Source of the DNA: a virus
Taxonomy: Duplodnaviria > Heunggongvirae > Uroviricota > Caudoviricetes
Reading direction: 5' to 3' (one strand)
IMG/VR virus record: IMGVR_UViG_2623620491_000014
Coordinates: 1-24,129 of that record
DNA length: 24,129 nucleotides
A program made the position numbers and the translations under genes. Below are positions 1 to 21,760 of this stretch, one piece after another. The notes below the pieces were generated by a model. It ran no database searches and was not told the DNA's origin. It saw only the letters and a program-made list of their open reading frames with translations. How positions within the stretch are numbered: position 1 is the stretch's first letter; each line of letters opens with the position of its first letter.

Positions 1-1158
1 ATGCTCACCGTTAAGCAGATTGAAGCAGCAAAGCCGAAAGAAAAACCATACCGCCTTCTCGATGGTAATGGCCTGTACCTTTATGTCCCTGTGTCAGGGA
101 AAAAGGTATGGCAGCTTCGCTACAAGATTGACGGTAAGGAGAAAATCCTGACCGTCGGAAAATATCCGCTTATGACTTTGCAAGAGGCAAGGGATAAAGC
201 ATGGACTGCGAGGAAAGACATCTCGGTTGGCATCGATCCGGTAAAGGCGAAAAAGGCTTCGTCTAACAACAATTCCTTTAGTGCGATTTACAAGGAATGG
301 TACGAGCACAAGAAGCAAGTATGGTCAGTAGGCTATGCAACTGAACTTGCCAAAATGTTTGATGACGACATTTTACCCATCATCGGCGGTCTCGAGATTC
401 TGGATATTGAGCCGATGCAACTGCTGGAAGTAATCCGCAGATTTGAAGATCGCGGTGCAATGGAGCGAGCCAACAAAGCCCGCAGAAGATGCGGCGAGGT
501 TTTTCGTTACGCTATTGTCACCGGAAGGGCTAAATATAACCCGGCACCTGACCTTGCAGACGCCATGAAAGGATACCGCAAGAAGAACTTCCCGTTCCTT
601 CCAGCAGACCAGATGCCTGCATTCAACAAAGCACTGGCAACATTTTCAGGAAGTATCGTATCGCTCATTGCGACAAAAGTTTTACGTTATACAGCCCTAA
701 GAACGAAAGAGCTTCGTTCCATGCTATGGAAGAACGTCGATTTTGAAAACAGGATTATCACCATCGACGCCAGTGTGATGAAGGGACGCAAAATTCATGT
801 GGTCCCGATGTCAGACCAGGTGGTTGAACTTCTCACTACGCTAAGCTCAATCACCAAACCAGTATCAGAGTTTGTTTTTGCCGGGCGCAACGATAAGAAG
901 AAGCCAATCTGCGAGAACGCGGTACTGCTTGTGATCAAACAAATCGGCTATGAGGGTCTGGAAAGCGGTCACGGATTCAGGCATGAATTCAGCACGATTA
1001 TGAACGAGCACGAATGGCCTGCTGATGCTATTGAAGTGCAACTGGCACATGCCAACGGCGGATCTGTGCGTGGGATTTACAACCATGCTCAGTATCTCGA
1101 TAAGCGCAGAGAAATGATGCAGTGGTGGGCGGACTGGCTTGATGAAAAGCCTGAGTGA
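1..1158 (+). CDS. int: Tyrosine integrase (P4-type, DUF4102-like N-terminal arm-binding domain)
   Basis: 385-aa ORF with ATG at pos 1. N-terminus MLTVKQIEAAKPKEKPYRLLDGNGLYLYV...GKEK fits the N-terminal domain of P4-family integrases. C-terminus has HGFRHEF and RGIYNHAQY, consistent with the catalytic His/Arg/Tyr region of tyrosine recombinases. Convergent with the tailspike, as in P22-like genomes. Confidence 0.9.
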   Translation: MLTVKQIEAAKPKEKPYRLLDGNGLYLYVPVSGKKVWQLRYKIDGKEKILTVGKYPLMTLQEARDKAWTARKDISVGIDPVKAKKASSNNNSFSAIYKEWYEHKKQVWSVGYATELAKMFDDDILPIIGGLEILDIEPMQLLEVIRRFEDRGAMERANKARRRCGEVFRYAIVTGRAKYNPAPDLADAMKGYRKKNFPFLPADQMPAFNKALATFSGSIVSLIATKVLRYTALRTKELRSMLWKNVDFENRIITIDASVMKGRKIHVVPMSDQVVELLTTLSSITKPVSEFVFAGRNDKKKPICENAVLLVIKQIGYEGLESGHGFRHEFSTIMNEHEWPADAIEVQLAHANGGSVRGIYNHAQYLDKRREMMQWWADWLDEKPE

Positions 1159-1329
1159 TCCACCTTAACAACTATCGAATAGCGAAGAGTCTTAAGTTTC
1201 TTATTTGATCGTAATATTAATATAATTATTCTTAGGAGGTTTTGTGATATACATCACATCAATGATTAATTATGAAAAAAAAACTTATTATGTGATAAAA
1301 TAAATTCTTTATCAAAATTAACAATATAA

Positions 1330-2394
1330 ATGAGTAAACTATATTCTATACAAATGCTTAGAGGTCTAGCAGCCGTTGCTGTTGTTATTGATCACGTCAC
1401 ACATTACATGCATCAATCATTTGATGGTGAATCGTGGTTGTATTCATCTAACATTTATAATGTAGGTGGTTTTGGTGTTGATCTATTCTTTTGTATTAGT
1501 GGATTCATCATGGTAATCACCACATACAACAGGCCAAGCGGGTTGTCACAATCGTTATCGTTCCTGAAAAAGAGATTTTTACGTATATACCCAACATATT
1601 GGTTTTATTGCATAATTACAATTACACTTCCATTAATTCTATATGGTAAAACGGATCTAATATCAAAATACGATTCACTGTTTTTATTACAAAGCTTTTT
1701 GCTTCTTCCAGCAAAAATTTCCGAAAAATCCTTTAGCCCATTTCTTGGGCAGGGTTGGACTTTGCAATATGAATTATATTTTTATATATTATTTGCGCTA
1801 ACAATTATCTTCTTCAAAGGATTCAAAGTTCCATTTTACTGCGCATTGTTAATGATATCGATGTTAATAATTTCACTCAACATAGATATTAATAGTTACG
1901 TAGATTATCTAGCGTCAAATACAATAATAATTGACTTTATTATGGGTATGCTTTCAGCATATTTTTATGTCAAGGTGAGCGCCAAGGGTATTTCAATAAA
2001 CATTAGAACTGGATTAGCATTGGTTGTTATTTTAATATCATTAATTTCATATATTATAATCAACAAATATCCAATTGATAGAATTATTGTTTTTGGGATT
2101 CCGTCTTTCTTCATCGTCACAATATTTTCGCTAATTAATGTTAACCCATGCAGCTTAACAAATAGAGTTATTATCCAGGCTGGAGAGGCATCATACACTA
2201 TTTATCTTGCGCATATGATTTTTATATGGACTGCAATAAAGTATTCTTATCTACTTAAATATCTTTATCCTGACGCAGCAATATTGCTTGTTTCTCTTGT
2301 TATATGCATTTTTTCATACTTGTTATATCTGTCTTTCGAAAAGCCGTTAACGAATAGACTGATGTCTATCCGAAAAAAACAAGCTCAACTCTAA
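1330..2394 (+). CDS. Acyltransferase family 3 integral membrane protein (O-antigen acetyltransferase-like serotype-conversion moron)
   Basis: 354-aa very hydrophobic ORF with N-terminal MLRGLAAVAVVIDHV and FFCISGF motifs typical of acyltransferase-3 (OafA/Oac-like) proteins. Very AT-rich codon usage unlike the rest of the window. Sits between int and tailspike, where P22-like phages carry O-antigen conversion genes. No obvious Shine-Dalgarno before the ATG at 1330; MLRGL at 1354 is an alternative start. Confidence 0.8.
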   Translation: MSKLYSIQMLRGLAAVAVVIDHVTHYMHQSFDGESWLYSSNIYNVGGFGVDLFFCISGFIMVITTYNRPSGLSQSLSFLKKRFLRIYPTYWFYCIITITLPLILYGKTDLISKYDSLFLLQSFLLLPAKISEKSFSPFLGQGWTLQYELYFYILFALTIIFFKGFKVPFYCALLMISMLIISLNIDINSYVDYLASNTIIIDFIMGMLSAYFYVKVSAKGISINIRTGLALVVILISLISYIIINKYPIDRIIVFGIPSFFIVTIFSLINVNPCSLTNRVIIQAGEASYTIYLAHMIFIWTAIKYSYLLKYLYPDAAILLVSLVICIFSYLLYLSFEKPLTNRLMSIRKKQAQL

Positions 2395-2402
2395 GCCATA
2401 AA

Positions 2403-2425
2403 AAGGAGCCTTTTCTTAAGGCTCC
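2403..2425. terminator. Hairpin between convergent acyltransferase and tailspike genes (possible bidirectional terminator)
   Basis: aggagcctt / ttctt / aaggctcct: 9-bp perfect inverted repeat with 5-nt loop, downstream of both stop codons (2392-2394 and 2435-2437). Flanking U-run is short (3 T on the minus-strand side). Confidence 0.4.
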
Positions 2426-2434
2426 TAAGATTAC

Positions 2435-4321
2435 TCAATTGACAATGACTTGACCTGAAGTGGTAATTTCAAACCAGAAATCCCCAGCCGTAGTAACTTT
2501 TGCTCCAGATGCAACCAGTTTGTCTGCTCCATTGATTGACCATGTAAAACTAGGAGATGAAGGATTTTCTCCTGATGTTTCTCCGGCCGATGAAACTAAA
2601 TTAACAATTGGAACTCCTGATATACTTTTATTAACTATCAAAATATATGTTGCAGTTCTTCTTGCTCCAGTGCTCGTTGCCAAGTTACCTACATGAACGA
2701 TAATCATCCCTCCATATGTTGTTTGATAGCCTTGAGTACTTCTTAGTGAACATATCTCTCTTGCTGCACCACCAGTGAAATTTATTGCTGGAAATAAGAT
2801 ATTATGATGCACCCAATCAACATAACCTCCATTAAATGTCTGTACACCTTTAGGAATGGTACAATTGTCTATGGTTGCAATCGCCCCAATACCATCAACT
2901 ATGATATCTGCTGAATTATTATCAGAAGAAGGGCTGGATTTACTATTTCTTATAGTTATATGGTTTTTAACTGAATTTAAACTTTGAACATGCAAAAGGT
3001 TCGCCCATCCGTCCTTTGACATATTATTTGCGTGAGCAAATGCACCTTCTATAACTACATTTTCATTATATCCTTCAGTATCGCTTGATCTCGCTGCAAA
3101 GCCAGCCCTACCATTACTTTCTGCTCCGCATGAAGTCATAACAAAACAATCACAGTTTCTTATGTAATGACCATGATTCACATTTGAATCAGAAGCTGTA
3201 GATATTGCTGAACAATAATTCATATAACCCCATTCCCAGCCATTATTTCCATTTGAGCTTGCATACCCTGAAGTTACTAAAGTGCTAGTATGTTGCTTGT
3301 ATATTGGATTATTGAGATAATCAAATTTAACTCCACTCGCCGAATTAGAACCAGCAATGATATTTCTAATATCAAGAATAAACGTATTACCAAAGTAAAA
3401 CCCATTCTGTGAGGCAGAAAATGCTTTTACTCTATCAATGGTTCCTCTACTTGCAAATTCATGGCTAATACCATGATACCCTCCGCGAGTAGCAAAATCA
3501 TTTAGTTTGAAATACTGTGTTGCTTTAGTGCTAGATGTGCTAGTTGTATTTTTTATTATAGACGCCCAACTTGGCAGATCTGGCCCTGCACGTAATTCTG
3601 ATGTTGAAATTCCTTTCCCTTTAATTTCTATACTATCAATCTGATCTGCCTCATTATTCCAATCATCATAATGGATTTCTGTTGATACTAACCTCACTCC
3701 CCTTGGAAGTTGCAATACACCGCCTTTTGTATTTGCATCAGGCAATGATGATTGTAACTGTGCAATCCCTTCGTTTATGCTTGCTCCTGTATCTACCAGC
3801 GGGTCCCCAAAGTCGTCTGAAGAAATTACCCTTTCAGCAAAAACCTCACGGGAATATTTATTTGTTCCCCCATTTGCTGCATATGGTCCAATTGATGCGC
3901 CAACTGTGCCTTTTCCATAATTAATACTTTCATCATAGCCAACAAGCCCAGCGCCTTCATTGCTATTCAATTCTCCGCGAAGTTGATCAGGGTCATACTT
4001 CAGCACATTAGGAAAATAAAACTGCTGCGCACCATATGCATCATAAACAGCCATAGAATGGCCTTGCACAGTTACGAACTTGGCAATCTGTCCGTTATAT
4101 ACCGGGTAACCAGCAGCGTTAATGATGATTGGTTGCGATACAGGAACGTGAGAGCCGTCTTCGTTCTCCACATAAACCTGAATCTGGTTTTCAGGATTTA
4201 CAGGGTCAGTGTCAATTTTACCGATATAAATTTTGCCATTGGCAACCGCTTTAAAAGAACGAGCCATAGTGAAGAGTTGCGAAGGCATGCTTACCACAAC
4301 ATTGGCTGTAATGTCTGTCAT
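2435..4321 (-). CDS. Tailspike protein: P22 gp9-type N-terminal head-binding domain fused to a distinct receptor-binding/enzymatic domain
   Basis: 628-aa ORF. N-terminal ~115 aa ([10 protein letters not shown]...[32 protein letters not shown]...[12 protein letters not shown]...NVLKYDPDQ) matches the conserved head-binding domain of P22/Sf6/HK620 tailspikes. The remainder is Ser/Thr/Asn/Gly-rich, consistent with a beta-helix. GGAG Shine-Dalgarno upstream of the ATG at 4321. Confidence 0.92.
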
Positions 4322-4380
4322 TTAATTTGCTCCAGATACAAGGAATCGCCGCAGCATGGCTACGGTGAATTTTGGGCATA

Positions 4381-4401
4381 AAAAACCCAGCCGAAGCTGG
4401 G
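4381..4401 (-). terminator. Rho-independent terminator downstream of ant
   Basis: On the minus strand: cccagc-ttcg-gctggg stem-loop followed by a T6 run, placed just 3' of the ant stop (4421-4423) and upstream of the tailspike start. Confidence 0.65.
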
Positions 4402-4420
4402 TCGTTGCGTTGGTTATCTG

Positions 4421-5323
4421 TCAGTAGTTATGTACTGAAGGAGGTAATTCTTTATTCTTAAGTCTCATCCATGCGGAAAGATTCGTTGGTCCGTCTGGCT
4501 CATTAATATCAACATCTCGTGTGTGGTTTATTAAAACGTCTCTCGCCATTCCGATAACATACGAGAATTCATGACCGTAGTCGTAGCATCTGCCGGAATA
4601 GTTCGATTGAATTTGTTTTAGCGCCGGATACAGTTCGCGGAATAATGCCTGTGAGCGGTTGGCATAATCCCATAACCATACAAGGCTGTTTGCTTCTTTT
4701 GCAGAAAGCTCGTTGGTTTTCTTCTCTTGTTTGCCGATAAATTCACCTTCAAGCACTACCCTGTGGATGTACTCTACGGCTTGCGGTATCTGAGATGCAT
4801 CAAGCTCTTCAATACTTTCCACATTGAAACGCTGATGAATCATTGCATAAGCTTCTGGGTACATTAGATGCTTTTTGCTGACTAGCATATTTACAGCATC
4901 ACGAAGCGGAGTCCTGTCATCAACAGATGTTTTCTTACGTGCATTTTCTGCCTTTCCCTTTGTCCAGTAGTCATGCAGTACAGTAAAGCATTCTTCCTGG
5001 TACTGAATCAGTTTATCACGGATGTCAGCACGAACTTTCTCAGGGTTGATGCTGAACAGCCATCCATTTAACTTCTTCAAAGGAAGGCAGAGTAGCTTAC
5101 GAAGCTTCCCATCAGCGGCAACCATGTTCATATGAACACAGTTGAATTTGCTAATCTGCTTCATGAGTTTTGTTTGCTGCGTTGACCAGCTCATTCCAAG
5201 GTTTTCAACGATTGGCTTCATCGCAACATATGCAACTCCGGCAGCCATGGCGGTGATAATTTGCTGACCGTTGAATGGTACGTAAGAGGTGTTCACTGCT
5301 TCTAAAATTGCTATACTATTCAT
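4421..5323 (-). CDS. ant: Antirepressor Ant (P22 immI)
   Basis: Protein from the internal ATG at 5323 ([47 protein letters not shown]...) matches P22 Ant (about 300 aa). GGAG Shine-Dalgarno precedes this ATG. The ORF-track extension to 5389 would run into arc and is not believed. Immediately downstream of arc as in P22. Confidence 0.88.
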
Positions 5324-5391
5324 GTTGGTTTTTCTCCACGGATTTACTGACAACCGAAGCCCTGACTGTTCCCGCAGTTGGGGCTTCAACT
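5315..5391 (+). ncRNA. sar: Putative sar-like antisense RNA, complementary to the ant translation-initiation region (boundaries approximate)
   Basis: In P22 a ~68-nt antisense RNA (sar) is transcribed across the arc-ant intergenic region, opposite to ant. Here that interval (5324-5391) is 68 bp and contains a composite stem-loop (gaagccc ... gggcttc, about 5356-5387). Placed by synteny only; promoter and exact ends not verified. Confidence 0.35.
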
Positions 5392-5553
5392 TTACGCGCC
5401 AATGCGCCCTTCCTTCTTAAAGCTTTCCATTACTCTATGATAAATCTCAGAGTTAACAGACCGACCATTCTCTTCCGCCACCTTGCGGACCAAATCCAAT
5501 ACTTCTTTAGGCCACCGCAAATTGAACTGCGGCATCTTGCTCATTCCTTTCAT
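5392..5553 (-). CDS. arc: Arc repressor (ribbon-helix-helix)
   Basis: 53-aa protein [53 protein letters not shown] is essentially the P22 Arc sequence. Start taken at the in-frame ATG at 5553; the ORF track's longer form starts inside the Arc operator. Confidence 0.93.
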
Positions 5554-5567
5554 ATTCACCTCACAAT

Positions 5568-5588
5568 ATAGGTCCACCGTGGACCTAT
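5568..5588. promoter_or_regulatory. Mnt operator (palindrome) in the Pant/Pmnt divergent promoter region
   Basis: ataggtccac-c-gtggacctat: perfect 10-bp arms around a central base, matching the P22 Mnt operator half-site (TAGGTCCAC). Confidence 0.8.
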
Positions 5589-5595
5589 TGAGAAT

Positions 5596-5616
5596 ATAGT
5601 AGAGTGCTTCTATCAT
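5596..5616. promoter_or_regulatory. Arc operator
   Basis: atagtagagtgcttctatcat: the 21-bp Arc operator sequence known from P22, between arc and mnt. Confidence 0.8.
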
Positions 5617-5643
5617 GTCAATACACTAACTTGGAGTGATGGC

Positions 5644-5895
5644 ATGGCTAGAGATGATCCGCACTTTAACTTCCGTATGCCTATGGAAGTAAGGGAGAAA
5701 TTAAAATTCAGGGCGGAGGCGAATGGGAGATCAATGAACTCCGAGTTGTTACAAATCGTCCAAGATGCTCTATCAAAACCATCGCCTGTGACTGGATATC
5801 GCGACGATGCAGAACGACTCGCTGATGAGCAGTCAGAGCTTGTTAAGAAGATGGTGTTTGATACGCTGAAGGATTTGTACAAAAAACCCACCTGA
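5644..5895 (+). CDS. mnt: Mnt repressor (maintenance of lysogeny; represses Pant)
   Basis: 83-aa ORF MARDDPHFNFRMPMEVREKLKFRAEANGRSMNSELLQIVQDALSKPSPVTGYRDDAERLADEQSELVKKMVFDTLKDLYKKPT, near-identical to P22 Mnt as I recall it. Divergent from arc-ant. Confidence 0.93.
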   Translation: MARDDPHFNFRMPMEVREKLKFRAEANGRSMNSELLQIVQDALSKPSPVTGYRDDAERLADEQSELVKKMVFDTLKDLYKKPT

Positions 5896-5904
5896 CGGTG
5901 GGTT
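5885..5904. terminator. Bidirectional rho-independent terminator shared by mnt (+) and the convergent cargo operon (-)
   Basis: aacccacc-tgac-ggtgggtt stem-loop flanked by A6 on the 5' side and TTTTATT on the 3' side, so it reads as hairpin plus U-run on both strands. The mnt stop codon lies in the loop. Confidence 0.65.
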
Positions 5905-5907
5905 TTA

Positions 5908-6327
5908 TTAGTGCTTGTATAGGTTGAACTCTCTATCAAGCCATATAACAAAAAATGTCGATCCAAGACGATAACCAACCATGGCTTTCAAATCATCAAA
6001 TCTAAAAGCCAAGAAATGATCTACGTCTTCCGTTATATGACTGGGGATACCTGCTTTAATTGCACCCCTTGCAATCTTCTCAAATCCAAGCTTATGCCTA
6101 CCTTGCTGCTTAATCTCTGCCCATGTTAGTTGACTTAATCTGTATAATTTATCAGCTAAGCCAGCTTTCTCATCTTTTTGGCATTTCGTTATGCAGTGAG
6201 AGCTTTGGATGTAACAGAATGAAAATTTCGGTTTCTTTTGATCTGAATTCCCCCCTGACTGCGGCCCTAACTTTAACTTACCTGTAGATTCAGCAGGGGG
6301 GATAATCCTTTTAGATTTTCTTGCCAT
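5908..6327 (-). CDS. Hypothetical 139-aa protein, candidate toxin/effector partner of the upstream DUF4065 gene (possible RelE/ParE-like C-terminal region)
   Basis: ATG at 6327 lies 4 nt after the upstream gene's TAA (TAA-CGAG-ATG), suggesting translational coupling. Basic N-terminus (MARKSKRIIPP...KKPKF), a C-x6-C-x3-C cysteine cluster, and a C-terminus ...KAMVGYRLGSTFFVIWLDREFNLYKH that resembles the GYRL/hydrophobic-strand/terminal aromatic-His pattern of RelE/ParE-fold toxins. The ORF-track start at 6402 is a TTG and overlaps the upstream gene; not believed. Confidence 0.6.
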   Translation of the reverse strand: MARKSKRIIPPAESTGKLKLGPQSGGNSDQKKPKFSFCYIQSSHCITKCQKDEKAGLADKLYRLSQLTWAEIKQQGRHKLGFEKIARGAIKAGIPSHITEDVDHFLAFRFDDLKAMVGYRLGSTFFVIWLDREFNLYKH

Positions 6328-6331
6328 CTCG

Positions 6332-6775
6332 TTAGTTAATCCGAGTTGCAAAGTACTCTGCCATCTCCTTAGAGCTAATTTCAGAACCACCAACACCCTC
6401 AATATAGTTTGATCTCCATGGTGACTCTTCGTGTGTCATGTTCCTCAGTTTCCAGGCAGAAAATTGCCCAAAAACATCCCAGACTTCTTCTAATAGCTCT
6501 AACTGTTCTTCGCTGAATTTTTCAGCATCAAAAGACTCTGGAGAAGGGATAGCGCCATTACCATATTGTTTATAACGGCGATAAAGCTCAGGGACAACAG
6601 GGCCATGCATCCAAGCTTCCATCTTATTCTGAAAAAGAGGCTCGCCAAGCAACGCCAATGAAAAACCCTGAGCATAGTAAACAAGCTTTTGTAATTTTAA
6701 ATTAGAGATTGTGTCACCGCTATCCTCGTCACACCGCGACAGGAAGTAGTCGGCGACATCAAAACAAGTAAGCAT
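6332..6775 (-). CDS. DUF4065 / Panacea-domain protein (SocA/GepA-like; candidate antitoxin or abortive-infection component)
   Basis: Protein MLTCFDVADYFL...ISNLKLQKLVYYAQGFSLALLGEPLF...EAWMHGPVVPELYRRYKQYG... carries the hallmark DUF4065 motifs (KLQKL.YYAQG, W..GPV.PE.Y). ATG at 6775 has a GGAGG Shine-Dalgarno 7 nt upstream; the ORF track's GTG at 6781 is less likely. Confidence 0.75.
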   Translation of the reverse strand: MLTCFDVADYFLSRCDEDSGDTISNLKLQKLVYYAQGFSLALLGEPLFQNKMEAWMHGPVVPELYRRYKQYGNGAIPSPESFDAEKFSEEQLELLEEVWDVFGQFSAWKLRNMTHEESPWRSNYIEGVGGSEISSKEMAEYFATRIN

Positions 6776-7149
6776 GAACACACCTCCATCTTGATAGCCA
6801 CAGCTAAGTATCCAACTATGTCAAATGTCATTTAATACTATAACAAAGCTATCAGCAATCCTTCGGAGGCTAACTTACAACCACTTTAGCGACATGTTTA
6901 AACCATTACGTTTCACATTTACTGCATTTTCGCCGAAGTTACCTATAAGGTAATGTCACATTTCCTGCAAGTTTCATGCAATGTTGAAAAGTGAGCTATT
7001 CACTTTTCTATGACACCAAACACCAAAAATAGCACTTTTTGCTAAATCATTCGTCCAAGTTGTGGATGGTTTGTCGTTGACACGTTTTCACACACCACTC
7101 CACCAATAAAGTATCATCTGGTATCCTGCTCAAAACTAAGGAGGTTGGC

Positions 7150-7539
7150 GTGAAGCAATTTCTTACTGCTATGTTCTTATTCATATCTTTTGGGGCTACA
7201 GCAGAGTGCTGGGTCGTTGGAGATATGCGCGGAATAAGCTATTCAGAACGAAATAATTTCCATCCGGAAGAAGATGGTTTTAGTGGAACATTCATCATTA
7301 AGACAAGCGGTGAAGATGCCAGCATCACATATTCTGGGACAGATGCGGGCGGCATGGCTTACAAAGCATTGTCTAAAAACTCCATCATAGGAATCGGCGC
7401 GAATGGCGAAACTCAACGCGTTATCGACTCATGGGTAATACATCCTACTGGAACAGTTTTAATGTCAAAAACCATTTCCGGTTATGGAAATATGGATTCA
7501 ACCAAAGCTTTTGTTGGAAAAGTAAAAAGAAAATGTTAG
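7150..7539 (+). CDS. Small secreted protein (moron) with N-terminal signal peptide; function unknown
   Basis: 129-aa ORF starting at GTG 7150 with a strong AAGGAGG Shine-Dalgarno 5 nt upstream. N-terminus MKQFLTAMFLFISFGATA-ECW looks like a Sec signal peptide; C-terminal Cys. Opposite orientation to the flanking late genes and preceded by a 368-bp AT-rich non-coding region. Confidence 0.7.
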   Translation: MKQFLTAMFLFISFGATAECWVVGDMRGISYSERNNFHPEEDGFSGTFIIKTSGEDASITYSGTDAGGMAYKALSKNSIIGIGANGETQRVIDSWVIHPTGTVLMSKTISGYGNMDSTKAFVGKVKRKC

Positions 7540-7563
7540 CGATTGAATCCAATTTCCCATACG

Positions 7564-9405
7564 TTACTGCTGTGTTGCCTCAGTAGCAAACAGCGGTCTG
7601 ATGGCATTCGCAGCGTTATTTATCGCTCTTTCATAGGCTGGTGTTCCTGCTTTGGTGTTTGCCAAACGAAGAAGCATATTCCTTGCTGCTTTGGACTCAT
7701 ACAAGCGCATCATTGCACCAAAACCAGCCTCAAGCCCCATTGATACGCCAAGAGTCGCAGTTGCGCCAATCGTCCTTATCCTGTTGGCTTGCGATTGCCC
7801 CGTCTGAGTTACTACATTTGCGGTGTCTGACCTTGCTGTTTGCTGTAGAACTTCATGAAGAGCATCAAGCTCTTTCATGTGCTTTCCAGAAAAAATAGTG
7901 TTGTAAATTTCACCGCCTGACTGAGATTTCAGCTTATTAACTTCCGTGATGAACTTGGCTGGAGAGTCACCGGCCTTTTCCGCTATTTTGCTGACGTAAG
8001 CTGCACGCATAGCATCTTTCCCCTTATCATCCAATGCGCTCCAGATTCGTTTCACGTCAGATGGTTTTCTGCTTAATACAACGGTATTTATAAGTTCAGG
8101 GCTGGATTCACTACTTGCCTTATTGAGCTTGTTAGCAATGTTTTTATTAAGCACCTTATTATAAACGTTTGCATAATCGGAATTTGCTTTAAGGTATTTT
8201 GCTGCGTCTGAAGCACCGAGGTTTTTAGCAACTGCGTTACGAAGGTCTTTTGACATTGCATTCTCTACCATATTGGTAGCTGCTTTTGCCTGGTTGGGGA
8301 AGACCATAGCATCTCCCTGAACATTAGATCTAAATGCCGTTCTGTGCTGACGCAGGAGATCAAACGTAACATCCAAATCAGTTGCAGGGTTTGCTAATTC
8401 TTCACGTAGGTTACGCAAGGATGTAAGCAGGCTTTGATTGGCAGACGTCCCAAGCCGTTCCTGTCTTGCGATCGCTGTATTCAGAGCATTCATGGTATTT
8501 GTGGTATCAACTGCGGCATTACCCATTTTATTGGTGACGTCATTGATAACAGCGCCAGCGGCATCCTTCCGTCCCCTTAACGTGGTGGTCAGAGATTTCA
8601 CCACATCATCAGGGTTGTACTCACCAAAACGGTCAAAATAATTACTTACCAGCTTACTACGCGTTGCATATTGCTCCGCTCGCTTTGAGCCTGTCCCGAG
8701 CAAAGCCCCCTCGGCATCCTGAGTAAGGCCGCGAGTGAAAGCATTTTTCGGCGTGATTACATCAGATGTCATTGGTGTCACGCCCATCGATTCTGATGTG
8801 GCAATTTTTTTCGCCACTTCTGGCGAAATATCGCCTTTTATAGCCGTCATTCCACGCCCTATTCCCTTTGCTGCTGCGGAAAGAACACCCTGAGCGGCAA
8901 GGTTGACTCCGGCATTTTTAGCTGCATTTTGTGCGAAATCGCCTTTCTGATTTGCGGCCTCTGCCAGTGATCCAATAGCCATGCTTCCTGCCGTTCCAAC
9001 TCCTGGAACTAAATACCCACCAATTGTTTCACCGGCTTGCGCGTAGGGGTCTGTCGGTCTGTCTACTGGACGATAAACATCATCCAAAACCTTGGGTCCA
9101 CCAAGCCCCTGACTGATTGCATTAATCAGACTTGCGCCGCCCTGCAATACGTCAAATGGTATGTTCACCAGACCACGACCAGCCTGTTCTGCAATTTGCC
9201 CTGCACTTTGACCACCAGTGAGCCAATCGCCAGCTTGTTGCATCAATGATGGTTCTTCCCGTGTTGGTGCATTATTGGCCTGATTAACTGTTTGTTGCTG
9301 AACAGCCTGACCAGCAAAATACTCATCAATGGCGATGCCAATATCTTCGGTGCTCGTACCATCAGGAAAGGTAAATGTCTTACCGTTTGCAGTTACTTTC
9401 ATCAT
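7564..9405 (-). CDS. Ejection (internal virion) protein, P22 gp16 homolog
   Basis: 613-aa ORF at the gp16 position and size (P22 gp16 about 609 aa), Ala/Gly/Gln-rich. Start overlaps the upstream gene's stop (ATGA). Confidence 0.85.
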
Positions 9406-10808
9406 TCCACCGTAAATTGAATGCCTGATTTTGAGGTATACGATCCAACCTGATTCCGTGGTTCTCCTGAAGGTGTCGAATCTTGTGCTGGCGCTGCGTC
9501 AGTATTCATTGACATATACCGCTTAACGGCACTCCCCAATGATTCACCTTTTTTAACATCCAACCCCAATATCTGACCGCCATTACGCGATTGTCCAGGG
9601 TTGCCATTCGCGCTCATCCACTCGGCTTTAAACTCATTAAACTGCGCGTTTCGTCGCTCAAGGTTTGCCATTGCATCAAGCCATCTTGCGACCGTCTCAG
9701 GGTTATCCATGTCAGTTGGTGCACCCTGCCGAACGATCTCAACGTCTTTATCCGTTGCGGGGCCGGGAGGTAGGAATTTAAGAACCTGACTGTTAACAAG
9801 GGCATTTTGGCGGATGCGCAAATCACGCAATGTTGTATCGCTTCCGGTAAGTTTTGCGAACATGTTCTGTGCGTTACCGAACAAACCTGTCGTTGGTTTT
9901 TCTGCTCTGAACTGTTGAGCAAGCGCACTCATAGAATTGGCTGAGTTTGATGATGCTGTGGCATTGTTTACAGCTGTCTCGATGCCTTTTTCCATGTTTA
10001 CTGACAGCTTAGGTGCTTCGCTAATCAACTGCTGAGCCTTTTCCTGCGCTTGCTGCATCTTAAACCCGAACTCTTGCTGATCCAGAGCCAAGCGTTGTGC
10101 TGCGATATTGTGCCCAGTCATTGCTGACTGATAGGAAAGGTTTTGGCCTCTCGCCTGAAGTGCCTCGCCAGCCTGATTGCTGCGGATTGTCTCTGCAAGT
10201 TTCCCGCGATCAATCTCACGACCAGCCATCTTGTCCTGAACATTGAAGTAATCAATTGGACCAAGAGCAGCCATTCCAAGGTGATCAACAAACTCACCAA
10301 ATCCTGAAGGATTCTGCTGATACATCTGAGCAACGCTGTTAGGGTCAACACCGACGCGAGTCAGTTCCTTGGCGTTGTTTTGCAGCCATGATTGCATTGC
10401 TTCTGGAGACGATGACGCAAGGCGTGCGCCAGCCGCTAAGGTGCCGATAGAATTACGCTGGTCTTCATCAATGAATCCCATGCCTTTACGAACTGATTCA
10501 ATCTGGTCTGGATATTGAGTAGCCAACTGACGCAAAGCACCGCGATCACCAGACGCATAAGCATTAGCGTATGCCTGCTGAAATTCTTTCTGCCGCTGAG
10601 CCTGCTTTTCCTGCTGAAACACCCCCGCAATACCTGAAAGGCCTTGCAAAGCAGTCAGCCCAACATTGTTAGCGCCTGAACGCTCAATATCATTGTTCTG
10701 CCTGATAAACTGAAGCGTATTGCCGATGTCATTTACGCTCGGAGCGTTTGAGTTTACGCCGCCGATACCAGCTAACAATCCGCCATTTGATCCTTGCCAA
10801 GTAGCCAT
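9402..10808 (-). CDS. Ejection protein, P22 gp20 homolog
   Basis: 468-aa ORF at the gp20 position and size (P22 gp20 about 471 aa); Gln/Ala/Asn-rich, low-complexity like ejection proteins. Confidence 0.85.
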
Positions 10809-10817
10809 GATTACCCC

Positions 10818-11510
10818 TTAAAACAACGAGCCAAGCAGACCAAGACCAGCACCGATACCAGCACCCCACGGAGTTGATAGCTCGAGAGCGCTGGCTATGC
10901 CACCACCCAAAAGCGCACCGGATGCAGCACCACTAACCCCCTGCTGCAATGCTGACGGTCGGTTGGCGTTTGCCGCAGCCAGCGCCGCGCTTTGCTGTGA
11001 AATCTGACTCATGTTGTTGGCATATGTTTGCCCGGCGTTTGCCTGCCCCTGAAGAGCGCCAAGACCGATATTTGCCAGATTCTGGTAGTTGTTCATCTGA
11101 CCAGATAGCCATTGCTGACCAAGCGTTGGTGCGATTGTTGCTAACTGATTACTGGTTGCGGTGGAACCCAATCCACCCGTTGCTTCCGCTGCCGCCAGAC
11201 TCTGATAGCGAGCCTGACTTGCAAGGTCTTTATACTGCTGAGAGTTGTAATACTGATTAAGTGCCTGCCCCTGACCTTCTAAACTGGAAAGATTCTGAAG
11301 CTGGTTAACATACTGCTCCGCAAGCGGCGTGAACGGAGCAAGGTTTTTCATGATCGTCTGCCACTGCTGATTTTGCAGGTCTGCGGCATACTTCTGAGCT
11401 TCTGCTGCATACTTTGCGCTTTTATCAGAGCTGCCACCTTTCCCGCCTTTTTCAGGGCAATAAGGTTCCTCGCCGCGCAGTTTTCTGCCCAGCTTAAATG
11501 CATATAACAT
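10818..11510 (-). CDS. Ejection protein, P22 gp7 homolog
   Basis: 230-aa ORF (P22 gp7 is 229 aa) with a Gly/Ala-rich hydrophobic C-terminus; GGGAG Shine-Dalgarno upstream. Confidence 0.85.
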   Translation of the reverse strand: MLYAFKLGRKLRGEEPYCPEKGGKGGSSDKSAKYAAEAQKYAADLQNQQWQTIMKNLAPFTPLAEQYVNQLQNLSSLEGQGQALNQYYNSQQYKDLASQARYQSLAAAEATGGLGSTATSNQLATIAPTLGQQWLSGQMNNYQNLANIGLGALQGQANAGQTYANNMSQISQQSAALAAANANRPSALQQGVSGAASGALLGGGIASALELSTPWGAGIGAGLGLLGSLF

Positions 11511-11512
11511 GG

Positions 11513-11968
11513 CTATCTCCCGTGATTCAGGAAGTCGATTAGTTCTTCGCGTGTAGCACTGTAAAATGTCACGTCATCCACGCCTTTGAAGTATTTCTTG
11601 ATGGTTCCTACACGCTTAAGGCCAATCATTGCGCAGTACATCTGCCCGTGGCGGAATTTGCGTGCAGCGAACGATGTGACGCACTGAACGGTGGTGTTAG
11701 TCAGAATGTATCGCCAGAACGCCAGCCCGATTTCCTTGCTGAAGCCGCGAATCTCTGGCAGGTACATGGCGTGGCAATCGAATGTCAGCGGCTGAATCTC
11801 CTGATAGTAAACAATGCCGCCGAACTGCCCGTGCACGTTCACCTCAAAGTAACGGCAATCAGGTTTGTAGTCGTATCCATCACCGTTGTTGCTCCCGGCG
11901 ATAATGTCAGGGTGATTTCCTACTGCTTCGATCAGGTCGATGTTTCGCGTTGGTTTGAACTGAATCAT
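11513..11968 (-). CDS. P22 gp14-like virion assembly/ejection-associated protein
   Basis: About 151-aa ORF in the gp14 slot between tail needle and gp7. ATG at 11968 overlaps the tail needle stop (ATGA). Identity by synteny and size. Confidence 0.7.
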   Translation of the reverse strand: MIQFKPTRNIDLIEAVGNHPDIIAGSNNGDGYDYKPDCRYFEVNVHGQFGGIVYYQEIQPLTFDCHAMYLPEIRGFSKEIGLAFWRYILTNTTVQCVTSFAARKFRHGQMYCAMIGLKRVGTIKKYFKGVDDVTFYSATREELIDFLNHGR

Positions 11969-12816
11969 CACTGCTCCGCAATGATTTTGATGGTTGTGGC
12001 AGTAAACGCCGCCCCATTTGACTGAATGGTTAACGTACTGCCATTTGTGGCAAGAAAGCCGTCTTTATCCACGCTGAAGAACGTAGCTAACAGGATGTTG
12101 TCGGTTGTTGTCGCCGAGTTGCGACTGCTTACCAGTGTGTCATGAACAGAACCGGAAAATGTTAGCTGCATTGACCTGTTGGCGGTTCCGCTGGGCCACG
12201 TCCCGACAATCGACAGCTTGAAGAACAAGGTTTTGTTCTCGTTGAACACAACCATCTTGTTGTTAACAGTGTCGAAGAATGGTGCCAACGTCCCGGATGA
12301 CGGCGTGAGCGTTTTCAGCAGGCTAACAAGGTTGGTCGGCGCTGTCGGGATGGTTACTGATACGCCAGAGTAAACAACCTCTGACTTCTTGCGTTTGGTT
12401 GCATACTCCAGAGCATCAATGCGCGTTTCATGGTCTGAAACCTGCGACTCCAGCGACTGAACTCTGGTATCAAGCGACGCAATATCGCTTTCATTCTGAG
12501 CGATTCGCGTTTCATGGTCCTGAAGAGTTGATTCTGCCTGGCTGATTCGCTCCTCATGATTAACAAGCGTTGCTTCCGCAGCAGAAATTCGCTGCTCATG
12601 GTCAGCGAGAATCACATCCTGCTCATCGTTCCTGACTTGTGCGTCATAAGCGCCCTGTCCGGCCTCGTTGGCCTTGTTAGCCACGTTACCAACATCAGTA
12701 CCCTGTGCGATAACGTAAAGCAGATACGACTGCGAGAAGATATTGCGTGGAAGGACTGATGTGTCGAGCCGTGTAGCCTGAATGATTACCGGAACATTGA
12801 GATTCGAATCCGCCAT
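11968..12816 (-). CDS. Tail needle (P22 gp26 homolog) with extended C-terminal knob domain
   Basis: 282-aa ORF. N-terminus [43 protein letters not shown]...[19 protein letters not shown] matches the gp26 N-terminal and coiled-coil region, with heptad-like HE.RI repeats. About 50 aa longer than P22 gp26, with a beta-rich C-terminus as in Sf6-type needles. Confidence 0.88.
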
Positions 12817-14234
12817 TACTCAATCCTTATCTGGCAGCCAGACAGAGTTACAGGTGACTTCGTGATAACGCGCAATTTGAAGCCAACATTTTTCCTGATG
12901 CGCCCTACTCGCTTCCACAAAACGCGTTTGTCGTAAACGAACGGTTCATTCTGCTCAATCATCTGCTCACGACCGTAATTTATGCCGTCAGTGGTTGCAG
13001 AGAGAAAAAGGCGGTCAGCGTACTGAGCTACGCCAGTTGAAGATTCAACCTCAAGGTCGAACACTCTTGCGTTATCCGCTTTGAACAGCGGAGTAAACAG
13101 CAGGTGTTCCTGTTGAAGGCTATACTGACTGCTGATATCGAACTGCAATTTCCCGGTCACGGACTCCAGCTTATCGCCGCACGTTATCTGATTGCCTTCG
13201 TAAATGAAGTCGATAGCGCGGTACACATCGTCATACAAGCCAGTTTTCAGCACACACCATTGCGGACCATTGGCGCTTGAAGATGCGTCGTACACAAGGA
13301 CGTGACGCGGAAGATGGATAATCAGCAACTCATGCGCATCAAATCGCAAAGACTCCATCACACCATCAGCCAGTTCATCAGCAGTGTAGGAGCGGAGTAT
13401 TTTCTCAATGCTCGCGCTGGCGATTGGTGACACCTGACCGGAGCCGATGATGTATACAGACGGCGCACCTGTTGCCGGATTGCTGATGAACGCATACGAG
13501 TCAGCAAACGGCGTTTTGCAGTAGGTTCCGGCAATGCCTTTCTGCACCATCAGCGATGGCTGTGCGACATACAAAGCAGCACCAACGGTGGTTGCACCAG
13601 TCAGGGAGAAATATTCAATCGTCGATGAACCAAAGCAGACGATGAAGTCTCGCCATGTGCCGATACCGATGATGCCGTCCGGCTGCGATTCTGCGCGATA
13701 TTGTGCGCTGTAACGGTCAGGATGCGATTCGTCTTCAAGGTCAGTGATAAACCATGAATCAGTGCCGTCTTTTGACCACGCATAACGACCACGTAAGCGC
13801 GTAATGTCACGAACCGAACCTAACTCATACTGCGTGAATCCGCTGTCTGTAGGCCAGTTTGAGACGGTTTTAACCGTGCCATCATAGCGATACTCGAAAA
13901 GTTGACCATTAACGCCTACCGCCTGCGATGTCCGACCATGCGCCATTGATACGCGACCACTTCCGGCAACATCACCGACTTCACTTTCTCCTTTGTACAG
14001 CTTGCCGCCACACACGCGATAAACAGCATTCTGCGCCATGTTGTACTCGACGCCGCGCGATACACCGTTCACATCAGAACGTTTGGCAATGCCCGGGAAT
14101 GAGCGAAGATATCCGCTGCTGTTGAGGATTTCTTTGGGTGTAGCCAACATATTCACTGGCAGATAGTCGATATAGTCGGCGTTTCTAAAGTCTTTGCCGA
14201 CACCTTTCATAAGCGGAAGTTGCTGAATAGGCAT
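12816..14234 (-). CDS. Tail hub protein, P22 gp10 homolog
   Basis: 472-aa [52 protein letters not shown]..., highly similar to P22 gp10 (472 aa) as recalled. GAGGTG Shine-Dalgarno upstream. Confidence 0.92.
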
Positions 14235-14243
14235 TTATTCACC

Positions 14244-14705
14244 TCACGTACTCGGATCATCTTTCTCGATGTAAAACCGATTCCACGTAAACGCGCTTTT
14301 TAACCCCGCCCCGCGAGGCATATCATTTCGCCGCTCAAGTGGTGGTATTTTGGTTAAAGCGATGCAGATTGTCTGATATGCACTGTCAGCAGCGGTAAGG
14401 AGAGCGTCTGACGGCTGAATGACGTTATCCATGCACACTTGCACAGCGAGTTTCAAAGCGACGCCATCATTTGCCCATGCAGGGATACCTGAATCATCGT
14501 CAGGTAACGGCATGATGCCGTTTTCTGTATCAGCAAACTGATATCCAAGCTCGATACCTTTAGCCTGCCATGCTGCCATCATGTCTTCGAGGTCATTAAT
14601 GGCATCTTCAATTGCCTGAGGGTCAGCATCTGTCAACGTGGCATTGGAATACAGCCCGGCTTTTCGTAAAGCCTTTAGAACGAGATCACCCTTCGTTTTC
14701 GCCAT
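14244..14705 (-). CDS. Tail accessory / head-completion protein, P22 gp4 homolog
   Basis: 153-aa ORF in the gp4 slot between coat and gp10; acidic protein. Identity by synteny and size. Confidence 0.8.
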   Translation of the reverse strand: MAKTKGDLVLKALRKAGLYSNATLTDADPQAIEDAINDLEDMMAAWQAKGIELGYQFADTENGIMPLPDDDSGIPAWANDGVALKLAVQVCMDNVIQPSDALLTAADSAYQTICIALTKIPPLERRNDMPRGAGLKSAFTWNRFYIEKDDPST

Positions 14706-14874
14706 CTTCTTCCGCCTTAGCCACTTTTTGCTTCGTTGCGGTTTCTTCAGGAGTTTTTACCCAACCTTTTTTCAGGTGAGATTTAACTTCTTCGTCATCA
14801 ACAATGATGTAATCGACAGCAAACTGACCACAGGTGATCATGTTGCCTGGCTTATAGAGCATTGTTCGTGCCAT
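14686..14874 (-). CDS. Small hypothetical protein (62 aa) between coat and gp4
   Basis: In-frame ATG at 14874 with a GGGAGAAG Shine-Dalgarno upstream. Overlaps the gp4 start by 20 nt. Acidic C-terminus (EEDGENEG). No family recognised. Confidence 0.5.
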   Translation of the reverse strand: MARTMLYKPGNMITCGQFAVDYIIVDDEEVKSHLKKGWVKTPEETATKQKVAKAEEDGENEG

Positions 14875-14915
14875 TGTCTTCTCCCAATAAAAATGGGGCC
14901 GAAGCCCCACCAAAA

Positions 14916-16169
14916 TTACTGCCCGGCAATAACGATGCCCGTATATTCAGGAACAAGTACAGAGCAACCGTACAGAGTGGTGAAACGAGCAGTGGTTACG
15001 CCTTTGATGTGGTCGAAGGCGTAAGACATGATCAGCGTAGCGCCCTGCTCGGTGGTTGCTGTCATTACCTGTGGCCCCTGACCAGTCGGGAATGCCAGTT
15101 TGCCGTACATCAGTTCAACAGAACCATCAGCCCAGAACAGGTTAGCCGGTGCTGCGTTCTTGTTGAGAATGGTGATTGCTGCTGATTCTGCCGGTTTGGC
15201 ATCGACGTTTGCATATGGACGACTCGCAACATCAGTATTTTCAACAGGGAGAATCTTTGGAGAAATTGTTACGGTAGTTCCGCTAACAGCCAGAACACGG
15301 AATACCTGCGGTTGCCCGGTGGTATCTTTTGTGATCTGGTGTACGGAATTCACACCGGCAATGGTGAACGCATCACCAACCTGCAAGCCAGATGCAGATA
15401 CCGTAATAGTCCCCTGTCGGTTATCAACTGGCATACCATTTGAATCTTTCGCTTCAACCTTGTGTTCAGGTTGGCCTGATACTGTCAAGGATTCAACGCT
15501 TCCTTTCGGTAATCGACCAGAAATATCGGTCTTGTAGCTATCAAAGGAAGCAACCTGAGGGATCTGCGCTTTTTCGTATGCTGTCAGGGTTGCGCCCTGA
15601 GCATAGGCACGGTGACCAAGCTCGCCAGCAAGGTCTTTGTAGTTGAAGGGGTTCCAGAAAGAGCGACGGTTGATACCCTGAGGTACACCAATCGCCGTCA
15701 TGGTGGCATCAATATCTGCCGCACCATTCCACAAGGCAAGGCCCCGTGAGCCATTTTCTGAGGCAGGAATTGCGACCACGTTAGTAGCACGCTGCGTGAC
15801 CATGGAAATCAGGTCAGAGTCAATCTGTGCAGCAAGGCGCATACCTGCGGCTCGACCAGCTTCAGTTTTATGTTCCGGGTCACGCATTTCACGCGCATCC
15901 AGAGTGTACAGAATGTTTTTCGGCTCCTTGAACACAGAAGGAACAAGGCGCTGAACCAGTGCTGTTGGCGTTTTGCCGCTGAGGTCTAGGCCTTCCTCAA
16001 TGTTCATGTGGTAATGCTGCGGACGATACAGAACATCACCTGCTCGCTGCATTGCTGTATCACCGGGACGGAATTTTTTAGCGTTACGGGAAACTACGCA
16101 GGCGGCCTCAAAGCCTTCAACGTAGTTTTCGAACATGATTTCAAGGTCTTTTGCTAATTGGTTAGGCAT
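14916..16169 (-). CDS. Major capsid (coat) protein, P22 gp5-type
   Basis: 417-aa ORF directly downstream of the scaffold gene; size and position match P22-like coat proteins (about 420-430 aa). GGAG Shine-Dalgarno upstream. Confidence 0.88.
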   Translation of the reverse strand: MPNQLAKDLEIMFENYVEGFEAACVVSRNAKKFRPGDTAMQRAGDVLYRPQHYHMNIEEGLDLSGKTPTALVQRLVPSVFKEPKNILYTLDAREMRDPEHKTEAGRAAGMRLAAQIDSDLISMVTQRATNVVAIPASENGSRGLALWNGAADIDATMTAIGVPQGINRRSFWNPFNYKDLAGELGHRAYAQGATLTAYEKAQIPQVASFDSYKTDISGRLPKGSVESLTVSGQPEHKVEAKDSNGMPVDNRQGTITVSASGLQVGDAFTIAGVNSVHQITKDTTGQPQVFRVLAVSGTTVTISPKILPVENTDVASRPYANVDAKPAESAAITILNKNAAPANLFWADGSVELMYGKLAFPTGQGPQVMTATTEQGATLIMSYAFDHIKGVTTARFTTLYGCSVLVPEYTGIVIAGQ

Positions 16170-16187
16170 GCTTAATGCTCCGATAGG

Positions 16188-17081
16188 TTATTTTTTTGCC
16201 TTTTTGGCGGCGAAATACGGCGTCCAGTCACCAGTTTCCAGCGCCTTGGCTTTCAGTTTGCCGAGGTTATTGATTACTGCGCCGTTGCCCCCCTTAACTG
16301 TCGGGGTTGTGGCTGCCGTGGTTTTTGCTTTTGGCATGATTCTGGCCTTCGATTCGATACGTTCCAGCAGACGACCAATTGCTACGGGGTTGGTAGCTTC
16401 TGCCAGTTGCTTGCGCAGTTCAGCGTTGCGACCGAGTGCCAGAACAACGATTTCCGGCTTCTCTGACTCAAACAGGATCGCGTTTTGTGTCTCGATGGGG
16501 ATTTCCTCGAGTACGGCCTGTTCTGCTTCCTGATAGCCAGGAACCTTGAGAGCCTTAACACGTTGCTGATATTTGGATAATCGCTCTTGATAGGCAGCCT
16601 GAAGCTCCTGCTCCTTCTGCTTGCGAGCCATCTCCTGTTGCTGGTACTTGCCGTTATCCTCTGCCCACTTAGCCATGCGTTGCTGGTAGATTTCTTCATC
16701 GAAACCGATGTCCTCATCATCCATTTTTGGCATTCGCGGTGGTTGAGTGATTACCGGCTGCTGCTCGACGGGTTTCTGAGACTGACGCATCAGCTCTTTC
16801 AGCTCGCGGTCTTTCTCTTTAATCGTCTTGCGCAGGTGTTTTACCAGTCCATGCTCTCCGCCATCTTCGCTGGTTGGCGAATCCAGCTTTTCGTCACCAA
16901 AGTAGAATTCCTGTTCTGATTCGTCGTCATCAGTGTCAGTAGCTTCCTCTGCATCATTTCCTGAGGACTCACTGCCATCTACTTTTTCGACTTCTTCAGC
17001 CAGTTCGACATCATCAGGAATCTGCTCTGACGCGTCGGGTTCGATTTCAACTTCTGGTGTGTTTTCTGCCATCTGGTCCAT
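16188..17081 (-). CDS. Scaffolding protein, P22 gp8-type
   Basis: 297-aa, highly acidic N-terminus, charged helical middle (KQKEQELQAAYQERLSKYQQRVK) and basic C-terminal tail (KKAKK), between portal and coat. AGGGG Shine-Dalgarno upstream. Confidence 0.85.
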   Translation of the reverse strand: MDQMAENTPEVEIEPDASEQIPDDVELAEEVEKVDGSESSGNDAEEATDTDDDESEQEFYFGDEKLDSPTSEDGGEHGLVKHLRKTIKEKDRELKELMRQSQKPVEQQPVITQPPRMPKMDDEDIGFDEEIYQQRMAKWAEDNGKYQQQEMARKQKEQELQAAYQERLSKYQQRVKALKVPGYQEAEQAVLEEIPIETQNAILFESEKPEIVVLALGRNAELRKQLAEATNPVAIGRLLERIESKARIMPKAKTTAATTPTVKGGNGAVINNLGKLKAKALETGDWTPYFAAKKAKK

Positions 17082-17171
17082 TTGTTACCCCTGTTTACTC
17101 GATGTTCAGCCCATCGGAAGGCAATAGGGTGCCAGGCCTCATAAAGACAGCCATTGCACGTTATGGGTTAA

Positions 17172-20869: not shown

Positions 20870-21335
20870 GGTTGAATAGCTCCTTGATACGAGAGCGTCG
20901 CTTATCGCGATCTCCCTTATCAGGTGTCACGTCTTCAACTTGCGACTGCTCTTTGAGGCCCAAATCACGGGCGATGATATTAGCGTTGAGAAGGTCAGCG
21001 GCTGCGCCAGAGAATTTCTGGTCGTAGATGATGTCTTCCGCTCGTGATGTGACGTCAGAAAAACCTTCCATTGACCGGAAGGTTCCCCATGTTTGCCTGG
21101 TGATATCAAGGAAGGTACACAATCCTGAAATAGTCATGGCTCGCATCTTAGGGACATTAGCCTTAATTATTTCTCCCTGATATGAAAATACCTTACCCTC
21201 CCATAGCGGGTTATCATCAGCCCACTCGAAGTATTCACAACAAGCAGCCCACAGCGCCTCAGGCGATTCGAATTTAGGGTTTCGCCCATGACTACTGCGG
21301 GCCTCCCAAAATCGGTTGCCCTTTGGTGCTGCCAT
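20847..21335 (-). CDS. Terminase small subunit, P22 gp3-type
   Basis: 162-aa [41 protein letters not shown]..., same length as and recalled as similar to P22 gp3. Directly upstream of TerL. Confidence 0.9.
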
Positions 21336-21414
21336 ATTGATTATTTCCCTTCTGCTTGCTTATCCCATTCATCGCGGAATTTGGATGGGTTGTCGAAACC
21401 TTGAGTTGCCATGT

Positions 21415-21657: not shown

Positions 21658-21760
21658 TGTTGGCTCCGTTTATCCGTTAAAAGGGATATCAGTTAAGTTA
21701 TCCCGTGTAGGGTATAAGTCATTATCAAAGCCACTCTGTAGGGAATGGCTTTTGTAATAA

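Follow-up and report, generated by a model that had tools for sequence, protein, structure and literature searches.

What does it mean when, in the DNA of a P22-like phage, the integrase gene, a conversion gene and the tailspike gene lie side by side? The window, as the whole 24,129-nucleotide stretch of viral DNA analysed here is called, raises this question at its very beginning. A sequence-only reading had placed attP of P22-like phages between the tailspike/conversion genes and int, which would leave int and tailspike at opposite ends of an integrated prophage, and had taken their contiguity as a sign either of a virion or circular-form genome, or of an attachment site upstream of int, off-window. 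The adjacency itself is confirmed, as ORF coordinates and Pfam domains agree on int (1-1158, plus strand), the acyltransferase gene (1330-2394, plus strand) and the tailspike gene (2435-4321, minus strand). The features on which the argument turns are the following.

1-1158, plus strand: full-length IntS-type tyrosine integrase of 385 aa (Pfam Arm-DNA-bind_3, Phage_int_M and Phage_integrase).
371-379, plus strand: TTTTACCCA, an arm-type-like 9-mer inside int, of putative function (annotated as an "attP" repeat at the corresponding place in the HK620 record).
1159-1183, no strand: 3' limit of the conserved integration module and mosaic junction, beyond which the int regions of HK620, CUS-3 and HF4s are no longer homologous.
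1184-1329, plus strand: AT-rich spacer without an att core, containing promoter-like sites ahead of the acyltransferase gene (GC by segment, promoter scan).
1330-2394, plus strand: membrane acyltransferase of 354 aa (Pfam Acyl_transf_3, PF01757, E 1.6e-34).
2404-2426, minus strand: intrinsic terminator hairpin (AGGAGCC-loop-GGCTCCT) with its T-run on the minus strand (terminator scan).
2435-3976, minus strand: receptor-binding/enzymatic part of the tailspike, residues 116-628, 38% GC (GC content, weak relatives).
3977-4321, minus strand: N-terminal head-binding domain of the tailspike (Pfam Head_binding, residues 1-113, E 2.2e-67).

Gene boundaries delimit the window: position 1 is the first base of the int ATG, and the other end is set by the endolysin start codon. 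It contains neither an att core nor host DNA; the promoter of int and the attL/attP core are both off-window, 5' of position 1. Its virion module is that of a P22-like (Lederbergvirus-type) podophage, with the head-binding N-domain of the tailspike and gp7/gp20/gp16 ejection proteins (Phage_P22_gp16, Inj_translocase and P22_gp7 are encoded on contigs identical to the window), and the ant-arc-mnt immI region is present as well. P22 shares this type of virion module (head-binding domain, gp16/gp20/gp7, ant-arc-mnt), and like the window it has a conversion locus between tailspike and int, although the genes concerned are gtrABC in P22 and an acyltransferase gene here.

The resemblance to P22 does not extend to integration. 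In P22 the order is gene 9 - gtrCBA - attP - int - xis, with thrW as the integration site; the attP core lies 30 bp past the int 3' end, next to gtrA, and xis adjoins int. The Int protein of the window shows no significant similarity to P22 Int by BLASTP (best E-value 0.11), whereas it is 98% identical to HK620 Int across all 385 aa. At the DNA level, int is 95-97% identical to that of Sf6 and about 97% to that of Kapi1, and the copy in the complete genome of Escherichia coli EC05, 99.6% identical in nucleotides, is annotated as "prophage integrase IntS" (PGAP). Judged from these sequences, int is a member of the IntS/KplE1-HK620-Sf6-type module, in which integration and excision have been demonstrated by experiment for KplE1 and HK620 substrates only (PMC2951348). 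KplE1 is bordered by a duplicated core, CTGCAGGGGACACCAT, the intS promoter overlaps attL, and the recombination module is common to HK620, Sf6 and CUS-3 (PMC2951348). The integrase type decides where attP is to be sought: the position between tailspike/conversion genes and int holds for P22 itself but fails for the IntS-type phages Sf6, HK620, CUS-3 and Kapi1, whose attP is flanked by int and xis (PMC8787464; PMC2951348).

Two further observations delimit the module. The 9-mer at 371-379 has two exact copies in the window (0.19 expected), corresponds to a repeat_region of the HK620 record (L002, 3369-3379), and recurs in the P' arm immediately 5' of the int ATG in an alignment of EC05 and phage sequences. 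At the other end, megablast matches of int regions terminate at query positions 1149-1183; homology to HK620 stops about 25 nt past the int stop codon, and a terminator annotated in HK620 starts just past the point where homology ends.

Could an attachment site nevertheless be hidden between int and the tailspike? With attP upstream of int, no att core is expected there, and none was found. ARAGORN detected no tRNA or tmRNA in the whole window, and Rfam, scanned over 1-4500 at E<=10, gave no tRNA-like match. The argW/attP core CTGCAGGGGACACCA, searched with up to 3 mismatches, has a single match in the window, at 9717 and with 3 mismatches, no more than chance would give. Exact words in common with argW reach at most 9 nt in 1100-1400 and 8 nt in 2380-2450, the stretches that include the two gaps; these words fall in the anticodon arm, not at the 3' end, and we judge them to be chance matches. 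These four lines, all negative, bear out the earlier remark that neither 1159-1329 nor 2395-2434 holds a tRNA-like core; the tRNA-derived core between int and tailspike that was named as the result speaking against that reading was looked for and did not turn up. A P22-style attP in one of these gaps, too divergent or too unlike a tRNA to be recognized, would fit the P22 precedent of a core 30 bp past int and the non-coding nature of the first gap (1159-1329, 22% GC), and yet it has next to no probability: the integrase is not of the P22 type, the gaps carry neither tRNA-like sequence nor a copy of the core, and in chromosomes the first gap is prophage-internal, with phage genes on either side; the longest word that it has in common with the far end of the EC05 prophage is 9 nt, not above chance. 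An attP of P22 type downstream of int is rejected on account of the unrelated integrase and the internal position of the gap in chromosomal prophages.

The attachment site is instead read from what precedes int. Three contigs (L004, L005 and L007) are 100% identical to window positions 1-12394, a comparison that took in the first 12.4 kb, and upstream of int they carry the host genes fadL-yfdF-mlaA-yfdC. The order is yfdC, argW (tRNA-Arg CCT), 161 bp and the int ATG, with argW and int in the same orientation and the core CTGCAGGGGACACCAT forming the 3' end of argW, 5' of int. Among the ten contigs listed with the exact acyltransferase gene, all that reach far enough 5' of int have argW or host genes there. 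For the source of the window, the att site is predicted at the 3' end of argW, 161 bp 5' of position 1. Of the two alternatives in the sequence-only reading, the site upstream of int, off-window, is the one borne out, as the identical contigs have argW ending 161 bp short of the int ATG. Judging from their lengths, at least two of these contigs end inside the prophage, and the attR copy would lie beyond them.

A search for a complete E. coli genome matching the whole window gave best matches that cover only about 80% of window positions 4300-24129 at about 96% identity (the acyltransferase/tailspike cassette being outside this comparison), and both prophage ends were read from EC05 instead. 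In EC05 the int-acyltransferase-tailspike block is 99.6% identical to the window, and the two diverge beyond position 4336. Exact 16-nt copies of CTGCAGGGGACACCAT mark the two ends of the prophage, with a spacing of 40,710 bp: the first is at the argW 3' end, the second beside torI and dsdC (two copies found in EC05 for 0.01 expected). From the core through int the EC05 chromosome aligns as near-identical to phage sequence, and the alignment diverges immediately left of the core, inside argW. Joining the left flank of attL to the right flank of attR gives a reconstructed attB (yfdC-argW-dsdC), and 911 of 5,426 complete E. coli genomes have this empty site uninterrupted, with several matches at 100% over 800 bp. 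By analogy with EC05, we infer a matching attR copy in the window's own source.

Taken together, the window is very probably a slice of a P22-like (Lederbergvirus-type) prophage with an IntS/KplE1-HK620-Sf6 module and attP upstream of int. IntS-mediated recombination with argW would leave int, the acyltransferase gene and the tailspike gene side by side at the prophage end formed by argW, and integration would send xis/torI to the far end, beside dsdC; in the circular form, attP would be the junction between the torI side and the DNA upstream of int and read ...agatgtCTGCAGGGGACACCATttatcagttcgc... As integration at argW parts int from xis, contiguity of int and tailspike is expected in prophage and circular form alike, and it appeared puzzling because a map valid for P22 was used for a phage whose integration module is of another type. 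The claim that contiguity speaks against an integrated prophage does not survive, as many E. coli chromosomes have intS and a tailspike gene at most about 4 kb apart, and as this exact sequence occurs with host flanks. Could the window still represent a virion or circular, non-integrated genome, its gene order arising for that reason alone? Such an origin would account for the lack of host DNA in the window, and free relatives (N7, Kapi1, Sf6 and HK620) have the same local order; it is nevertheless quite improbable, because a prophage has this order too, so that contiguity does not discriminate, because argW or host genes precede int in the listed contigs wherever these reach, and because the cassette formed by the acyltransferase gene and the tailspike receptor domain occurs at the DNA level in none of 50,697 phage records. 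The identical contigs indicate that the window almost certainly comes from an integrated prophage.

Known phages of the IntS type share this arrangement to different extents. Sf6 has the same local architecture, with int and a conversion acyltransferase gene on the plus strand, a terminator and a converging tailspike gene on the minus strand, but only the N-terminal head-binding domain of its tailspike is in common with the window, and in the examined stretch of its record the ant-arc-mnt immI of the window is not beside the tailspike. The GenBank records of Sf6 and HK620 have the attP core CTGCAGGGGACACCAT annotated 161-176 bp 5' of int, which places attP between int and the excisionase side. 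The IntS-TorI module of HK620 and KplE1 (CPS-53) has the same 16-nt core as the relatives of the window, and there, as here, the tRNA gene is followed by the integrase gene in the same orientation, with the int promoter inside attL (PMC2951348); its TorI/xis side is outside the window. Kapi1, in which the DNA of the tailspike N-domain, like that of int, is about 97% identical to the window, likewise uses the argW 3' end, with int and xis reported at opposite prophage ends (PMC8787464), but it has a hypothetical gene (hyp24) between int and tailspike in place of the acyltransferase gene, and a different tailspike receptor domain.

The region that sets the window apart is the cassette at about 1184-3976 (acyltransferase gene and tailspike receptor domain), with 22-38% GC as against 48% in the rest of the window, and with closest phage relatives only 32% (acyltransferase) and 36% (tailspike receptor part) identical at the protein level. 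The acyltransferase matches PHROG 3333 "O-acetyltransferase" (E 5.9e-58) and is 26% identical to Sf6 Oac, whose gene takes the same place between int and tailspike; it is probably, from these similarities, an O-antigen O-acetylase, i.e., a lysogenic conversion gene product, which would acetylate the O antigen. NCBIfam and PADLOC gave nothing informative on either the acyltransferase or the tailspike. The head-binding domain of the tailspike is conserved with P22, Sf6 and HK620, DNA homology to relatives restarting at 3977, and PDB matches are limited to this N-terminal domain (Sf6 gp14 and P22 tailspike N-domains) and to residues 513-625.

How might the acyltransferase gene be expressed? Promoter-like sites occur on the plus strand at 1272-1301 and 1318-1345, their count across the scanned 1100-4450 being not above that of shuffles, and in Sf6 the place equivalent to the 1184-1329 spacer has a putative promoter of oac. 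The terminator scan found no plus-strand terminator in 1159-1329, so that transcription from the autoregulated intS promoter in attL might also extend through the acyltransferase gene. The hairpin at 2404-2426 sits in the gap 2395-2434, between the converging acyltransferase and tailspike genes, and a terminator is annotated at the corresponding place in Sf6. It is conceivable, if rather doubtful, that the cassette is a recently imported, matched pair able to modify and to recognize an O antigen that has no described converting phage.

The layout of int, acyltransferase gene and tailspike gene with an upstream argW att site is already published for Sf6/HK620-type prophages and brings no new biology; its main value is a correct annotation, in which the att site can be placed precisely. 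P22-like phages are mosaic, with at least two unrelated integration modules that have attP on opposite sides of int. The side depends on the module, so gene order around int is uninformative on prophage versus virion unless one first knows which type of integrase is encoded. One lead alone is potentially useful: the divergent acyltransferase/tailspike cassette, as a candidate for a new pair of serotype-conversion and host-range genes.

ORF and domain calls bore out the gene placement given by the sequence-only reading, in which an integrase, an acyltransferase and a tailspike are contiguous:

1-1158, plus strand: full-length tyrosine integrase (int), with Arm-DNA-bind_3, Phage_int_M and Phage_integrase domains
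1330-2394, plus strand: membrane acyltransferase (Acyl_transf_3)
2435-4321, minus strand: tailspike, with a P22 head-binding domain at residues 1-113

The integrase protein is 98% identical to Int of coliphage HK620 across all 385 residues, and its gene is 95-98% identical in DNA to int of Sf6, CUS-3, Kapi1, N7 and HF4s, and 99.6% identical to a gene named intS by PGAP in EC05, an E. coli strain with a complete genome whose prophage carries the same int-acyltransferase-tailspike block. BLASTP found no significant similarity between P22 Int and the window Int (best E-value 0.11). Judging from these matches, the virion genes are those of a P22-like phage, while the integration module is of a different, IntS/KplE1 type. 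KplE1, located at argW, is flanked by two copies of the core CTGCAGGGGACACCAT; its intS promoter overlaps attL, transcription of int is uncoupled from that of the recombination directionality factor (RDF), and HK620, Sf6 and CUS-3 share this conserved module (Panis et al., PMC2951348). Within int, TTTTACCCA at 371-379 is a putative arm-type-like word, which is repeated just 5' of the int ATG in relatives and occupies the same position as a repeat labelled 'attP' in the HK620 record; the window holds two copies (371-379 and 14755-14763) for 0.19 expected.

The position of attP differs between these groups. According to the GenBank annotation for HK620 and Sf6, the attP core is 161-176 bp upstream of int, within the small genes hkaB/17, with the int promoters in the intervening stretch. 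In the P22 record, by contrast, the core is located 30 bp past the int 3' end, adjoining gtrA, and xis is adjacent to int. The premise that attP lies between the tailspike/conversion genes and int thus holds for P22, but not for the subgroup of the window, where attP is upstream of int. When the yfdC-argW-intS region of the EC05 chromosome was aligned with the attP-int regions of HK620 and Sf6, the three were near-identical from CTGCAGGGGACACCA through int and diverged immediately left of CTGCAGGGGACACCA, where the EC05 chromosome carries the body of argW. That oac adjoins int in Sf6 was reportedly described by Clark et al. (1991; record X59553), and a layout of int, acyltransferase and tailspike with attP upstream of int is already known.

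The exact acyltransferase protein of the window is recorded on 24 contigs and, among the ten shown, all those reaching far enough upstream of int have host genes or argW there, the longest carrying fadJ-fadI-yfcZ-fadL-yfdF-mlaA-yfdC. Three of these ten (L004, L005 and L007) are 100% identical to window positions 1-12394, the full extent of the loci fetched, and ARAGORN places in them a tRNA-Arg(CCT) whose end lies 161 bp upstream of the int ATG; the argW-int junction reads ...ggttcgattcCTGCAGGGGACACCAtttatcagttcgc..., and its right flank closely matches that of the HK620/Sf6 attP. The sequence-only interpretation is therefore partly supported, as one of its two alternatives, an attachment site upstream of int and off-window, was right, and the observation behind it is confirmed. 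Position 1 of the window is the int ATG and position 24129 the ATG of an endolysin gene (23653-24129, minus strand), so that the window is a gene-bounded slice from which argW and attL were removed by construction.

Could an att site nevertheless sit between int and the tailspike? The gaps 1159-1329 and 2395-2434 had been said to contain no tRNA-like sequence, and this proved correct: ARAGORN detected no tRNA or tmRNA in the whole 24 kb, and Rfam returned only chance matches, none tRNA-like, in 1-4500 at a permissive E<=10. With up to 3 mismatches allowed, the core is absent from the window save for one chance-level match at 9717. The longest words shared with argW (9 and 8 nt) fall in its anticodon arm rather than its 3' end, and those shared with the 1.2 kb surrounding the EC05 attR are likewise of 9 and 8 nt. 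In chromosomes, both gaps are prophage-internal, flanked on each side by phage genes, and intS lies within about 4 kb of a tailspike gene in many E. coli chromosomes.

The argW attachment is seen in full in EC05, whose prophage spans from argW to torI (excisionase/RDF), beside dsdC. In the 49.4 kb retrieved there are exactly two copies of the core (0.01 expected), one at the argW 3' end and one between torI and dsdC, forming a 16-nt direct repeat, CTGCAGGGGACACCAT, with a copy spacing of 40,710 bp. On its phage side, attR is flanked by sequence matching the left arm of the HK620/Sf6 attP. An 800-bp attB reconstructed from the attL left flank and the attR right flank was present as one uninterrupted stretch in 911 of 5,426 complete E. 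coli genomes (top matches at 100% identity) and matched annotated yfdC, tRNA-Arg and dsdC. Repeats and empty site complete the attP x attB = attL + attR picture. In close relatives, experiments established that IntS, together with host factors, carries out recombination between attP and the 3' end of argW, which restores an intact tRNA, and that TorI directs excision. Observed directly here are what the parts are, where the core lies with respect to int, the pair of direct repeats and the unoccupied site; the element of the window would undergo the same IntS/argW reaction and would possess an intact attR.

The gap 2395-2434 holds a terminator hairpin (2404-2426), and 1159-1329 is a spacer of 22% GC with promoter-like hexamers, in which a terminator scan found no plus-strand intrinsic terminator from the end of int to the beginning of the acyltransferase gene; HK620, in contrast, has an annotated terminator starting just past the end of its homology to the window. 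The acyltransferase could thus be co-transcribed with intS. The enzyme is likely to O-acetylate the O-antigen, and lysogens would express it either from a promoter in 1184-1329 or, given the missing terminator, by read-through from PintS. Another clean terminator hairpin, GACCCAGC-TTCG-GCTGGGTT followed by a T-run, lies at 4384-4403 on the minus strand, between ant and the tailspike. Beyond it are a P22-like immI region and three further genes:

4421-5389, minus strand: ant (immI)
5392-5616, minus strand: arc (immI)
5644-5895, plus strand: mnt (immI)
5908-6402, minus strand: ORF overlapping the next gene, phrog_8366, with a weak PADLOC NsnC match (E 9.5e-6)
6332-6781, minus strand: antitoxin-like gene with a SocA/Panacea domain
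7150-7539, plus strand: divergent gene matching phrog_2651

EC05 lacks ant at the corresponding place. Between mnt and gene 16, P22 carries sieA, whereas the window has the three genes at 5908-7539, which together could form a toxin-antitoxin or defence islet.

DNA homology to relatives (Sf6, HK620, N7) ends at 1149-1183 and restarts at 3977, delimiting a low-GC mosaic cassette (1184-3976) made of the spacer (22% GC over 1159-1329), the acyltransferase (31.5%) and the receptor part of the tailspike (38%), versus 48% elsewhere in the window. Among phage proteins, the closest relatives share 32% identity with the acyltransferase (Sf6 Oac reaching 26%) and 36% with the receptor part (phage LHE287), and EC05 is the only one of the 5,426 complete E. 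coli genomes in which the cassette occurs. It represents a new allele of an exchangeable conversion/host-range cassette of known type, rather than a new type of system.
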